Shown: piece after piece, positions 4,506 through 4,918 of the stretch
Layout: every line of letters starts with the position of its first letter
How positions within the stretch are numbered: the first letter of the stretch is position 1
Virus record (IMG/VR): IMGVR_UViG_2703719354_000003
Source: a virus
Taxonomy: Duplodnaviria > Heunggongvirae > Uroviricota > Caudoviricetes
DNA length: 13,572 bases
Reading direction: 5' to 3' (one strand)
Notes under the pieces: model-generated
The model's input: the letters and a program-made list of their open reading frames with translations, nothing else
What the model was told of the DNA's origin: nothing
Database searches by the model: none
Translations under genes and position numbers: made by a program

Positions 4506-4918
4506 TGTGCAGCTCCCGTGCTGATGAGATAATAATTTTGTGATGTGGTTTTCATGGATTCCCCCTCACATGGCTGGTGGCCTCCCCAAAGGCTGCCAGC
4601 CTCCCTTCTGATTCAGCTCCTCTGAAAAATCACTCTTCCAGGAAGAACCCTTTTCGTTTCTCAGCGCCTGAGCGCTTTGTACTACCTTGCTGATACGGGC
4701 GTTTTTTTAAATTGCGCCCTTAAGACAGTGATCTACTTAACCAATGGATCTCTCCTGTTGGAAAAGACCCTATTCCTGCCCCAACACCCAATCCCCCCTT
4801 ACCCCCCTTACCCTCTTCCCCATAAAAACGTACTACTTCCCTAGTACACATGAGGAGTTGGGTCAGTTGGTTGCCAACCTGAACAGGCACCTTTAAGCCT
4901 GCTTCTGTTCGGGTACCT
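4506..4918. promoter_or_regulatory. Structured intergenic region upstream of the helicase gene; candidate replication origin or regulatory region
   Basis: C-rich tract 4779-4821 with tandem CCCCCCTTA repeat (4793-4801, 4802-4810), G-rich on the minus strand; palindromes GGTTGcCAACC (4869-4879), GTACTA-n6-TAGTAC (4829-4846), AGGCTGcCAGCCT (4590-4602); hairpin GGGCG-n12-CGCCC around 4696-4720. Confidence 0.35.

Follow-up and report, generated by a model that had tools for sequence, protein, structure and literature searches.

A conserved cis element upstream of the helicase gene in an Eru1-type phage replication module: a candidate replication origin

The 413-nt gap between a 102-aa protein gene and the helicase gene of a lambdoid E. 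coli prophage (positions 4506-4918 of the window, meaning the whole 13,572-nt stretch of DNA analysed here) is, judged from its conservation, a genuine functional cis element under strong purifying selection, with a constraint like that of protein-coding sequence. Its occurrence in other genomes indicates that the element is obligately linked to the helicase. We read the core of the gap as the replication origin of the module, probably activated by transcription through an R-loop, and the flanks as expression signals at the RNA level. On the sequence evidence, we give this reading a probability of roughly 0.4.

Replication module, conservation and linkage of the gap

The prophage carries an "Eru1"-type replication module, with an SF2 helicase and a Toprim primase (nomenclature of Llarena et al. 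2021, PMC8044961). Eru types are defined by genes, and the defining papers describe no origin or cis element for Eru1 (PMC8044961). Searches against Pfam, PHROGs and NCBIfam revealed no initiator gene of the O/P or Rep/O type, only the SF2 helicase, the Toprim primase and small proteins without known function. The third gene of the window (285 aa) differs from Eru1C, and no further replication genes are annotated in the complete phage Fostie. Two genes border the gap:

2847-4505, minus strand: SF2 helicase of the Eru1A type, RadD/XPB/UvsW-like (Pfam ResIII, DEAD and Helicase_C; phrog_16), with its ATG at 4505-4503
4919-5227, minus strand: 102-aa protein (phrog_852), directly upstream of the gap, with its stop codon at 4921-4919

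The helicase matched RadD, XPB and UvsW (2oca) in the PDB and, weakly, RadD, RecG and PriA in NCBIfam; its similarity to UvsW was weak but significant by tblastn (1e-7). CxxC...CxxC is present towards its C-terminus. RadD, RecG, PriA and UvsW are enzymes working on R-loops and forks, and this resemblance was counted in favor of the origin reading. The 102-aa protein had no match in Pfam, NCBIfam or the PDB, and its AlphaFold model (pLDDT 58, low confidence) showed three helices and no recognisable DNA-binding fold. Its gene adjoins the helicase module in all lambdoid relatives. In distant non-lambdoid phages the protein was found with an SF2 helicase and a small nuclease-like protein, in another gene order, and this co-occurrence argues for a role in replication rather than in lysogeny control. 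The genes upstream of the gap had been taken as early regulatory in the initial annotation; for the 102-aa gene, which travels with the helicase module in distant phages, a regulator role is not supported. One record labels the gene 'CII transcriptional activator', by position only.

The coordinates of the gap were confirmed. It holds no long gene and lies upstream of both the helicase and the primase genes. Three ORFs of 50-56 codons, at 4677-4844 (plus strand), 4720-4890 (minus strand) and 4744-4896 (plus strand), showed no codon periodicity. Small proteins encoded by them were therefore rejected, and the two short 'hypothetical protein' CDS annotated in the gap of Fostie were taken as spurious.

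In 78 distinct relatives from many genera, the gap was 86-99% identical to the window, while the third codon positions of the flanking genes were 55-90% identical, which points to strong selection over the entire gap length. Mean identity was 0.93 for the gap. For the helicase it was 0.76 at third codon positions and 0.97 at positions 1 and 2; for the 102-aa gene, the corresponding values were 0.73 and 0.92. Divergence of the gap grew with that of the helicase, several-fold slower than at synonymous sites, and the constraint was near-uniform over all 413 nt.

These data bear on the possibility that the gap has no function of its own, being the decayed remnant of a 124-aa gene or a mosaic junction kept alike by recent recombination. 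The region is mosaic: relatives have the 124-aa gene at the place of segment B (see below), with 57 nt in its stead in the window, and 4777-4914 could not be aligned to the relatives with this gene. The 124-aa protein belongs to phrog_1347 and has a weak PD-(D/E)xK-like match. However, the gap identity tracks helicase divergence at a rate several-fold below the synonymous one, a G-run doublet and the core motif persist at 66% helicase aa identity, and Fostie, a viable isolated phage, has the short form. We regard an absence of function as very improbable.

The linkage to the helicase was tested with the motif CATWGGTTARGTAGATC. Of 201 matches on viral contigs, 193 were followed at a distance of 130-780 nt by an Eru1A-like helicase with the same orientation, and the helicases behind these 193 matches had 65-100% aa identity. 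Among GTDB species-representative genomes, the G-doublet occurred together with the helicase in 23/23 real matches, and the 28 chance matches had neither of the two (0/28). The element is tied to the module across at least 10 genera, and 98 records of Stx or related phages contain both the G-doublet and the core motif. Away from the helicase, the only finds were a remnant left by deletion (L144) and 17-mers that match coding DNA by chance. The matches on plasmids, prophages in large plasmids and one circular phage-like record of 42.8 kb, did not speak independently for a replicon. Eru1 Stx phages share the pair of DEAD/DEAH SF2 helicase and Toprim primase (66% aa identity between the window helicase and that of Stx phage Ss-VASD), but the flanks of their element are unlike those of the window's class.

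The element was unannotated in the E. coli genome matches inspected, and no description of it turned up in the literature, whether searched by sequence strings or by topic. In many temperate phages of enterobacteria, highly virulent Stx2a phages among them, the Eru1 module takes the place of lambda O/P. Whether the element acts as origin or as RNA, spurious small-ORF calls by annotation pipelines, as in Fostie, become correctable.

G-rich tract, core motif and repeats

The core (~4679-4847, ~170 nt) comprises a G5-6/TAA/G5-6 doublet, the motif CATWGGTTARGTAGATC, three ARGTAGWWC repeats on the same strand and an A-run. Its features, from 5' to 3' on the minus strand, were:

4822-4847, minus strand: hairpin GTACTA-GGGAAG-TAGTAC followed by GTTTTTAT, weak-terminator-like, with ARGTAGWWC copy 1 at 4838-4830
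4768-4821, minus strand: G-rich, purine-rich tract on the sense (non-template) strand, with the core GGGGGG-TAA-GGGGGG at 4807-4793
4754-4767, minus strand: conserved TCTTTTCCAACAGG block that separates the G-tract from the core motif; 'CTTTTCCAA' in most Hendrixvirinae-type classes
4717-4750, minus strand: core motif GATC-CATTGGTTAAGTAGATC-ACTGTCTTAAGGG, with the 17-mer at 4746-4730 and ARGTAGWWC copy 2 at 4738-4730
4697-4719, minus strand: A-run GGGCG-CAATTTAAAAAAA-CGCCC (A4-8 then YGSM), kept in Hendrixvirinae-type classes
4679-4687, minus strand: ARGTAGWWC copy 3, AGGTAGTAC, whose GTAC/TAGTAC part is complementary to 4847-4842

The minus-strand G-runs listed in the initial annotation were read exactly as given: GGGG 4821-4818, GGG 4813-4811, GGGGGG 4807-4802, GGGGGG 4798-4793, GGG 4789-4787 and GGGG 4782-4779. 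The tandem 9-bp repeat described for the C-rich tract was also recovered by Tandem Repeats Finder (CCCCCCTTA x2.3 at 4793-4813, 100% matches); it is the plus-strand reading of the G-doublet. The 57 nt at 4824-4768 contain 33 G and 1 C and are 81% purine. G4 prediction, which had been proposed as a check, returned a G3+N1-7 x4 motif at 4821-4779 on the minus strand, the only canonical one on either strand of the 13.5-kb window, with a G4Hunter score of 2.4, the window's highest (next site, 1.6).

An intramolecular G-quadruplex of these six runs (4779-4821), in the DNA or in the early mRNA, might thus be taken as the functional entity, also in view of the tract being almost invariant among the 82 variants of the window's class. 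Across classes, however, at least four suitably spaced G3+ runs were kept in only 3/10; the other seven had two to four runs outside the pattern, with just two G5-6 runs. Conservation thus does not extend to the G4 itself, and we consider it quite unlikely to be the functional entity. Two G5-6 runs are too few for a canonical unimolecular G4 with three quartets, but they might contribute to two-quartet or bimolecular structures or to RNA:DNA hybrid quartets.

A G4-6/1-4 nt/G4-6 doublet was present upstream of the core motif in every class. Across the ~13 classes, including Stx phages (GAGGAGGGGGTAAGGGGGTGGAG) and Xenorhabdus, the conserved part came down to a pair of long G-runs separated by 1-3 nt, which lies 45-60 nt upstream of the motif. 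The 9-bp tandem thus does not stand as an iteron array. Indeed, no array of at least 3-4 direct repeats of 17-22 bp with helical spacing was found in the gap, only CCCCCCTTA x2.3 and the three 9-mers. The latter pattern, ARGTAGWWC, was chosen after seeing the data; it occurs three times in 13.5 kb, against 0.41 expected, always in the gap and on one strand, with spacings of 100 and 51 nt. Three of the window's four GTACTA sites are also located in the gap.

The alignments indicate that the core is conserved as sequence and not as a fold. For the core motif, the structure conservation index (SCI) was 0.62 on the sense strand vs 0.73 on the antisense strand, and a cross-class pairing control was negative. 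The hairpin at 4697-4719 was not conserved (alifold energy 0 for 4725-4690). The hairpin at 4822-4847 had an invariant stem and a variable loop among the 82 variants, and together with the U5 behind it received no terminator call in a consensus scan. In Xenorhabdus, the core motif is tandemly duplicated as a direct repeat. Sequence kept without structure, this duplication and the one-strand 9-mers fit a site of protein/DNA recognition. The absence of the A-run and of the GTAC repeats from the Stx-phage classes counts against the origin reading, as does the mutated core of ENT39118.

A recognition site need not be an origin. The core could instead be regulatory DNA to which the 102-aa protein or a host factor binds, as at an operator or activator site, so as to time the transcription of the replication genes or an antisense promoter. 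Its conservation as sequence and not structure would suit such a role, as would the short same-strand repeats, the GTAC-containing inverted repeats and the 102-aa gene, always adjacent in lambdoid relatives and once labelled a CII activator by position. Set against this, no sigma-70-like promoter was found in the gap on either strand (by scan, and by eye in any class), in non-lambdoid phages, whose genes are ordered differently, the 102-aa protein accompanies the helicase and a small nuclease-like protein, and its low-confidence model has no recognisable DNA-binding fold. We hold this alternative to be improbable.

A stem that would join the G-tract's 3' end to the bases ahead of the motif was convincing by eye in six classes and was rejected, as it failed the cross-class control (4.5 bp for self vs 4.2 bp for cross pairing). 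A putative long-range GTACTAG/CTAGTAC stem around the core was significant in 4/13 classes; in the main class it had no covariation and some broken pairs. In L025, the complementary segments carry repeated TAGACGTC motifs, and an HNH endonuclease gene is located just downstream.

Probable RNA signals at the edges of the gap

Outside the core, the gap and its borders carry these features:

4910-4927, minus strand: hairpin HP1a, stem CGGGT/ACCCG, loop UUAAAGGU (4922-4915), with the stop codon of the 102-aa gene (4921-4919) in the loop
4884-4901, minus strand: hairpin HP1b, stem CAGGC/GCCUG, with the same loop UUAAAGGU (4896-4889)
4869-4879, no strand assigned: palindrome GGTTGGCAACC, in the window's own sequence class only
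4616-4676, minus strand: segment B, with the hairpin AGCGC-TCAG-GCGCT (4676-4663) and the invariant TTCTTCCTGGAAGAGTGA (4648-4631)
4572-4601, minus strand: leader hairpin GGCUGGCAGCCU-UUGGGG-AGGCCACCAGCC, just upstream of the ribosome-binding site of the upstream ORF
4496-4567, minus strand: Shine-Dalgarno sequence GAGGGGG (4567-4561) and 19-codon upstream ORF MKTTSQNYYLISTGAAQWS (ATG 4555-4553, stop 4498-4496)

The initial annotation had counted at least four palindromes, and we found at least eight palindromes or hairpins (4927-4910, 4901-4884, 4879-4869, 4847-4830, 4719-4697, 4676-4663, 4646-4632 and 4601-4572). The one at 4869-4879 is absent from the W224N/Fels-1 and Stx-phage classes. The fold energy of 4670-4935 was below that of shuffled sequences on both strands (z = -3.5 minus, -3.1 plus). 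No global fold emerged from RNAalifold on the whole alignment across classes (-2.7 kcal/mol). With Rfam 15, no family was found in the gap at the gathering threshold, and at E<=10 the region 4400-5300 gave only three chance-level matches (E 4-8.6). An all-against-all covariation analysis over variable columns was swamped by phylogenetic signal and was left out.

The HP1 hairpins at the 5' edge are supported by compensatory changes. In 46 stem variants of relatives, 91.9% of the positions were paired, compared with 29-49% in slid controls, and cells with double changes numbered 70 vs 28.8 in shuffles (0/500). The excess of G.U over A.C (31 vs 4) indicates that the hairpin forms on the minus (sense) strand, and the SCI of the block 4935-4875 was 0.97 sense vs 0.78 antisense. 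On the window's sense strand, TTRAAGGT occurs only at the two gap hairpins; in Fostie it falls into well-paired hairpins at the two gap sites and nowhere else. The pair is probably a processing, stability or protein-binding site on the early transcript.

Early-transcript hairpins with a conserved loop and covarying stems are also a mark of lambda nut boxB and HK022 put; here there are two in tandem. A nut site was nevertheless rejected. The loop has 8 nt (UUAAAGGU), boxA is missing, the leftward operon has no copy, and the hairpins are located ~570 nt from PR, beyond two genes. No N-like gene was found; the PL-proximal gene encodes an HTH protein. An oop-like antisense RNA was rejected as well: no sigma-70-like site was found in the gap on either strand, and the only 'terminator' called on the plus strand is HP1b, a hairpin of the opposite strand by the G.U evidence.

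Towards the 3' edge, segment B had an SCI of 0.55 sense and 0.18 antisense. The leader hairpin is common to the 'long' variants and nearly invariant, and a variant, A4578G, closes its internal mismatch. The upstream ORF behind it overlaps the helicase ATG, with its stop 5 nt past. It was intact, with 18-19 codons, in 157/159 loci, which had 35 nucleotide versions and 25 peptide variants, and its third positions were twice as variable as positions 1 and 2. With a strong Shine-Dalgarno sequence of its own, a preserved frame and a stop overlapping the downstream start, the predicted ORF has the make-up of a translationally coupled leader. The term 'non-coding' used for the gap in the initial annotation thus holds in so far as no long gene is present and the 50-56-codon ORFs lack periodicity, but not for this short frame at 4555-4496. 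A conserved small ORF or sRNA occupying the region had been named as what would speak against an origin there; the upstream ORF and the covarying hairpins do exist, but at the edges of the region only.

A leader acting purely as RNA would also account for the near-uniform constraint, the RNA hairpins and the upstream ORF, and this was counted against the origin reading. The gap might work only as RNA, as a long structured intercistronic leader of the early-right transcript with roles in processing or stability, in protein binding by its hairpins, in pausing or antitermination and in translational control by the upstream ORF, and the origin would then be elsewhere. We see this as a serious possibility, if an unlikely one. 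It would account for the sense-strand hairpins with their conserved loop and compensatory changes, for the higher sense-strand SCI of 4935-4875 and 4690-4610, for the leader hairpin ahead of an ORF overlapping the helicase start, for an orientation that is always the same, upstream of the first replication gene, and for constraint in every part of the 413 nt. The long-range complementarity flanking the core in 4/13 classes would also fit. What it leaves unexplained is the most conserved part, the G-tract and core: no fold is conserved there, and the closing stems proposed for it neither passed the cross-class control nor covaried in the main class. Moreover, the Stx-phage classes lose HP1 and keep the G-doublet and core, and the core is directly repeated in Xenorhabdus. 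The lack of an Rfam family even at E<=10, of a hairpin copy in the leftward operon and of an N-like gene also weighs against a leader alone. Should the gap act as a leader after all, it would be a new, widespread structured element controlling the expression of replication genes.

Candidate origin and comparison with known systems

An origin is, we infer, the best single reading of the central part of the gap. Of the candidate origin proposed in the initial annotation, the cis element tied to the helicase-primase genes stands, but classical iterons and an AT-rich element are absent. The GC content of the gap is 49.6%, with a sense-strand GC skew of +0.24, and its AT-richest 40 nt (70% AT) are part of the upstream ORF by the helicase start. 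Neither an AT-rich unwinding element (by composition) nor recognised DnaA or IHF sites were found in the gap, nor was an antisense control RNA; all three absences count against an origin. Within the early-right operon, no cis element other than the gap stands out as unusual, and a repeat finder showed no iteron clusters within the replication genes. Lambdoid phage origins are often intragenic, and the origin may lie inside the helicase or primase gene, without repeats.

A PR-like promoter is located at ~5528-5500, roughly 700 nt upstream. A scan called no sense-strand terminator between PR and 4506, so that PR transcription would be predicted to cross the gap.

In the mechanism we propose, the gap would be the cis control region of an Eru1-type module (phrog_852 protein, SF2 helicase and Toprim primase), with three functional layers. 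RNA polymerase starting at PR would traverse the tract, the G-rich strand being the non-template one. The resulting RNA, rich in G and 81% purine, would stay hybridised to the C-rich template as an R-loop, possibly with RNA/DNA G-quartets. The RadD/PriA/UvsW-like helicase and the primase would next act on the opened DNA, and perhaps on an RNA 3' end close to the A-run, with the core motif and repeats as recognition or loading site. The leader hairpin and the 19-codon ORF would set helicase translation by coupling. A segment of G-rich RNA on a C-rich template, as looked for in an R-loop, is present (33 G vs 1 C; doublet in all classes).

More specifically, Eru1-type lambdoid phages might lack an origin of initiator and iterons and start replication at a transcript-made R-loop, nucleated by a G5-6/TAA/G5-6 block like that of mitochondrial CSB II, possibly via RNA:DNA hybrid G-quartets, with helicase and primase capture at the core motif. 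This is a doubtful proposal at present. If it were true, a temperate enterobacterial phage would use a priming logic like that of mitochondria and ColE1, and replication, hence Shiga-toxin gene dosage, would be tied directly to PR transcription. Among the phages covered by the R-loop reading would be Stx2a phages from the outbreak lineages O104:H4, O103:H25 and O145. More generally, if the core is an origin, it would be a defined target for genome and toxin-gene amplification after induction and a simple marker for typing replication modules, and could represent a bacterial-phage case of R-loop or G-run-dependent initiation.

Origins with an R-loop and a G-rich RNA are established for ColE1, T4 and mtDNA (PMC4412123). 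For the hybrid to persist in ColE1, the RNA must contain a G-rich stretch (PMC4412123). As would be predicted for the window site, the ColE1/pMB1 origin, where the R-loop of RNA II serves for priming (RNase H / Pol I), is transcribed through and downstream of a constitutive promoter. Both sites have a G-run in the RNA-sense strand near an A-run followed by CGCC. The window has the ColE1-like GGGCG...AAAAAAACGCC...AGCAA at 4719-4687. Its counterpart in ColE1, which we take to be GGGGGGCGGAGCCTATGGAAAAACGCCAGCAACG, is present in >5000 plasmids. The match of AAAAACGCC..AGCAA to the ColE1 origin may be due to chance. Unlike in ColE1, the main G-tract of the window is 75-110 nt from the A-run, not ~20 nt, which speaks against an origin. 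There is also no antisense regulator RNA I, no Rfam RNAI match in 4400-5300 at E<=10 and no plus-strand promoter found by scan; the phage brings its own helicase and primase, and the A-run is missing in the Stx-phage classes.

CSB II of the mitochondrial heavy-strand origin likewise has two long non-template G-runs, 1-3 A/T bases apart, and the complement CCCCCTTACCCCC was found verbatim in vertebrate mtDNA control regions. At CSB II, hybrid RNA/DNA quartets and an R-loop end transcription and make the replication primer (PMC4412123). Machinery and lineage are unrelated, so the likeness is an analogy only. T4 oriF/oriG is a phage origin type that needs a persistent transcript hybrid, and its UvsW helicase is matched weakly by the window helicase. 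In T4, however, an AT-rich unwinding element directly follows a middle promoter, whereas the window site is G-rich and ~700 nt from PR.

Fels-1, a relative with the same module, shows bidirectional in situ replication (PMC8008629). The cumulative GC skew of Fostie has its minimum at ~28.0 kb, beside the element; it coincides there with divergent promoters and is uninformative.

The lambda iteron origin, within gene O, occupies the same map place in the PR operon, downstream of cro and the cII position, and is PR-transcribed, as predicted for the element. It differs in that the window has no O/P or Rep and no AT-rich region, that the three 9-mers are 50-100 nt apart and that the site is not intragenic. 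Short direct repeats are common to both, and a Vibrio relative carries a RepL-like gene and true iterons at the same position as the element, which was counted for the origin reading.

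The gap in the early-right operon and its constraint

The window covers the early region of a lambdoid E. coli prophage. Its 413-nt gap lies between a 102-aa gene and the helicase gene. The gap was 100% identical to prophages of E. coli VR50 and other strains, and 88-93% identical to the Hendrixvirinae phages Fostie, YP3 and ENT39118. The helicase-primase pair is the 'Eru1' replication unit of non-lambdoid-replicating Stx phages (PMC8044961); an origin, iterons and this intergenic region go unmentioned there and in the sequel paper.

Features of the early-right operon and the repressor gene
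5528-5500, minus: PR-like promoter, head of the operon
ATG at 5476, minus: YdaS/Cro-like gene, second in order, after PR
5227-4919, minus: 102-aa gene (phrog_852), directly before the gap
4918-4506, minus: gap, between the 102-aa gene and the helicase
4505-2847, minus: SF2 DEAD/ResIII helicase, directly after the gap
2845-1877, minus: Zn-ribbon/Toprim primase, after the helicase
Minus: 285-aa gene, between the primase and antiterminator Q
1029-628, minus: antiterminator Q, last listed in the operon
5597-6289, plus: repressor (S24 peptidase)

The repressor gene is followed by a strong terminator (6290-6400, plus strand; CCCGCCCACTCTTAAGTGGGC and T9). Beyond it lie a PL-like promoter and operator repeats of the ATCGATAAACCGAT type, also present at PR (5530-5570, TTTATCGGCTTTCCGATAAAT). 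Downstream of the Q gene (628-1029), at the position expected for a late-promoter leader RNA, the Rfam gammaproteobacterial sRNA STnc100 matched 1-78 (minus strand) with 48.7 bits against a gathering score of 47. This match is clipped by the window edge and overlaps, by coordinates, an annotated VR50 prophage gene for an ompC-like porin, in its 3' part.

Every feature listed for 4506-4918 by the initial annotation was present where it had been placed: the tandem repeat (CCCCCCTTA x2.3 at 4793-4813), the six minus-strand G-runs and the palindromes, claimed as at least four and counted here as at least eight inverted repeats. Fold energies of the gap were 3.1-3.5 SD below those of shuffled sequence on both strands, and an Rfam search of the gap matched no family. 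The description as non-coding held for the 50-56-codon ORFs inside the gap, which had no codon periodicity, but not for a conserved 19-codon ORF at 4555-4496. Fostie has two 38-40-codon 'hypothetical protein' CDS on the opposite strand of its gap copy (L001 4176-4292, 4342-4464); the missing periodicity of the homologous window ORFs suggests that these are spurious calls.

Conservation in relatives, named as a check by the initial annotation, was borne out by an alignment of 78 distinct relatives covering the gap together with the 102-aa gene and 900 nt of helicase, with the window as reference.

Mean identity to the window in 78 relatives
Gap: 0.93
Helicase, third codon positions: 0.76
102-aa gene, third codon positions: 0.73
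Helicase, codon positions 1+2: 0.97
102-aa gene, codon positions 1+2: 0.92

In the farthest relatives the gap was still 86-93% identical, with third positions at 55-60%, near saturation. A recent sweep was rejected as the cause of this similarity, because larger helicase divergence went with larger gap divergence, the two rising together, slowly. By this comparison the gap is under strong selection. A 413-nt non-coding stretch that, as aligned, evolves like non-synonymous sites is unusual, and it is our chief factual result.

Leader signals and inserted genes

Two hairpins with the loop UUAAAGGU occur in the window (4927-4910, 4901-4884) and one in the 'long' variants, relatives with an extra 124-aa gene. 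Pairing was kept in 91.9% of cells (46 distinct versions), and 70 cells were double changes compared with 28.8 in shuffles (0/500 reached the observed value), both paralogous copies being pooled, so that there are fewer independent events than cells. When control partners were slid by 1-3 columns, just 29-49% of cells paired. G.U outnumbered A.C by 31 to 4, and thus the helix forms on the sense strand, either as early transcript or as the corresponding single-stranded DNA; the structure conservation index was 0.97 sense versus 0.78 antisense. The Stx-phage classes have no UUAAAGGU-loop hairpins. A nut site was rejected, as the leftward operon of the window and of the complete phage Fostie had no further hairpin copy on its transcribed strand, and there was no N-like gene. 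The hairpins may be processing or stability sites, or protein-binding sites.

Two further signals precede the helicase:
4601-4572, minus: leader hairpin, then the Shine-Dalgarno sequence GAGGGGG
4555-4496, minus: upstream ORF of 19 codons (MKTTSQNYYLISTGAAQWS), which has a strong Shine-Dalgarno sequence and a stop codon 5 nt beyond the helicase ATG

The upstream ORF, unannotated in the records inspected, has an intact frame in 157/159 related loci (35 nucleotide versions, 25 peptide variants) and a conserved N-terminus, MKTTSQNYYLI. This fits a putative translational coupling to the helicase. Uniform constraint and clear RNA features count against the origin reading proposed below, as they would suit a gap that is purely an RNA leader equally well, a reading that we consider rather doubtful.

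Comparison with a second group (E. coli W224N, phi467, Salmonella Fels-1) revealed a mosaic. The leader (4506-4619) is common to both at 89-97% identity, a 124-aa gene stands in place of 4620-4676, 4677-4776 is shared at 73-76%, and 4777-4914 could not be aligned by BLAST. The 124-aa protein belongs to phrog_1347 and has a weak PD-(D/E)xK-like match.

Many relatives carry this 124-125-aa gene between element and helicase, at precisely the site of a 57-nt stretch in the window (L004 3112-3486, L005 3113-3481, L088 2627-3004, L221 1307-1681); the protein contains an AIE(V/I)D(K/R) motif and weakly matches a restriction-endonuclease-like family. The gene seems dispensable, since the isolated phage Fostie is without it. 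In Stx phages a 125-aa gene overlaps the helicase start, where the window has the upstream ORF. At L025 1890-2510 (also in L038) the leader is replaced and an HNH homing-endonuclease-like ORF of ~200 aa lies between element and helicase; in this class, G-tract and core are flanked by the repeats TAGACGTC / TCTGGATGT. A defective prophage (L144 ~3320-4280) keeps the 102-aa gene and the element to window position ~4632, beyond which follows unrelated DNA, with helicase and primase deleted.

The G-doublet and core motif across relatives

Read side by side, W224N, phi467, Fels-1 and Ss-VASD share a common plan, a purine-rich block with two long G-runs (GAGGAGGGGAGGGGGAGGAG in W224N; GAGGAGGGGGTAAGGGGG in the Stx phage Ss-VASD, whose helicase is 66% identical in amino acids to the window's). 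The 17-mer motif CAT[AT]GGTTA[AG]GTAGATC follows ~45-60 nt beyond. Among 201 matches to this pattern in viral loci, 193 preceded an Eru1A-like helicase of 65-100% aa identity by 130-780 nt and shared its orientation; the remainder were a deletion remnant, chance matches within coding sequence or loci too short for a decision. The matches form ~13 sequence classes, each of which has a G4-6/1-4 nt/G4-6 doublet upstream. In GTDB, searched with one genome per species, 51 contigs matched. The doublet was found in 23, the same 23 that had the helicase downstream, all Enterobacterales (Atlantibacter, Yersinia, Xenorhabdus, Citrobacter, Pseudocitrobacter, Enterobacter, Serratia, Trabulsiella, Superficieibacter, Pseudescherichia); the other 28, from unrelated phyla, had neither. 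G-doublet, motif and helicase always occur jointly. The Stx-phage version was present in 98 phage records, among them 62 'Stx2a-converting' phages and also phages of O104:H4, O103:H25, O145 and O157 strains.

The proposed G-quadruplex was strongly predicted in the window, as its sole canonical motif and with its top G4Hunter score (2.4). However, just 3/10 classes retain four runs at suitable spacing. What is conserved is the two-run doublet, so a unimolecular G-quadruplex is not the form that selection maintains. Hybrid or two-quartet forms of the G-tract are possible.

Within the core, 4830-4725 had no sense-strand advantage in structure conservation index (0.62 sense, 0.73 antisense). A closing stem, persuasive by eye, failed the cross-class control, and a long-range GTACTAG/CTAGTAC pairing, significant in 4/13 classes, had broken pairs in the main class and did not covary there. 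The core is, on these comparisons, conserved in sequence, not fold, and behaves like a putative recognition site. The 9-mer ARGTAGWWC, a pattern chosen after data inspection, has three copies in the 13.5-kb window against 0.41 expected, every one of them inside the gap and on the same strand (4838-4830, 4738-4730, 4687-4679). An A-run (A4-8 then YGSM) follows the core in Hendrixvirinae-type classes and is missing from Stx-phage classes.

Three of the four GTACTA sites in the window lie within the gap, and the hexamer is also in the gap of all Hendrixvirinae-type elements. In the Fostie genome (L212), GTACTA / TAGTACTA palindromes number 13 against 5.6 expected and cluster in the immunity region (28309-28329, 29140-29203), where they look like operators.

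Neighbouring proteins and the origin reading

The 102-aa protein has no relative in Pfam, NCBIfam or PDB; its ~470 database relatives are all 'hypothetical', and AlphaFold modelled it poorly (pLDDT 58, three helices). In Serratia phage Eta (L213 1026-3746) and Vibrio phage PS15B-5 (L214 975-3749), phrog_852 immediately follows an SF2 helicase and a small protein, the latter likened in the Eta annotation to a type III restriction endonuclease. Recurrence of this grouping in a different gene order, in unrelated-looking phages, excluded a simple 'CII' and points to a conserved three-protein replication set, not a CII-like regulator. In Vibrio phage 1.233.B (L089 2214-2967), phrog_852 is followed by a gap that holds a strong terminator, an AT-rich segment and ACGACAGAACCTGTCGC iterons, and then by a RepL-like winged-helix (RepL/HTH_36) gene, helicase and primase. 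This looks like a classical origin-plus-initiator layout in place of the G-rich element; the phrog_852-helicase interval is thus where a relative keeps an apparent classical origin. The window's helicase resembles RadD, XPB and UvsW and weakly matches RecG and PriA. Enzymes of these types act on forks, D-loops and R-loops and are not ring-shaped replicative helicases.

Fels-1, which has the same module, undergoes bidirectional in situ amplification after induction (PMC8008629), and therefore an internal theta-type origin exists. Because of this, and because there were no repeat clusters within the replication genes, no O/P or Rep gene and no further replication genes annotated in the complete phage Fostie, we take the core (~4679-4847) as the candidate origin of the module, with a probability of about 40%. 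The proposal of the gap as an origin is partly supported; the element itself is real, widespread and tightly tied to Eru1-type genes. Against it count the lack of an AT-rich element and of an iteron array in the gap, the class-specificity of several sub-motifs and the mutated core of ENT39118.

The two conserved long G-runs lie on the non-template strand of a predicted transcribed stretch, and the scan called no sense-strand terminator between PR and the helicase. Such G-runs hold a persistent RNA:DNA hybrid in ColE1 RNA II, T4 oriF/oriG and mitochondrial CSB II (PMC4412123). A G-rich transcript could likewise form one here, every step past that transcript being inferred. Control regions of vertebrate mtDNA contain the complement CCCCCTTACCCCC verbatim. 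In the window, AAAAAAACGCC...AGCAA resembles what we take to be the ColE1 switch region, a sequence confirmed as real plasmid sequence; this resemblance may be chance. By analogy, Stx phages and their relatives could conceivably use a CSB II/ColE1-like R-loop origin that serves an SF2 helicase-primase pair, though we think it unlikely. We class the element as a candidate origin activated by transcription and flanked by RNA and translation signals, undescribed as far as the literature searched reaches.

Two natural variants of the core were seen. Xenorhabdus lircayensis (L221 1186-1245) has the entire core motif twice in tandem (GAGTACATAGGTTAAGTAGATC ... GAGTACATAGGTTAGGTAGGTGTAGATC), with the helicase 1.4 kb downstream, past a 124-aa and a 299-aa ORF. 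Cronobacter phage ENT39118 (L003 ~4330-4350) has CATGGGTTAAGTAGGGAG in place of CATTGGTTAAGTAGATC in its diverged core, and this deposited phage retains G-doublet, hairpins and upstream ORF.
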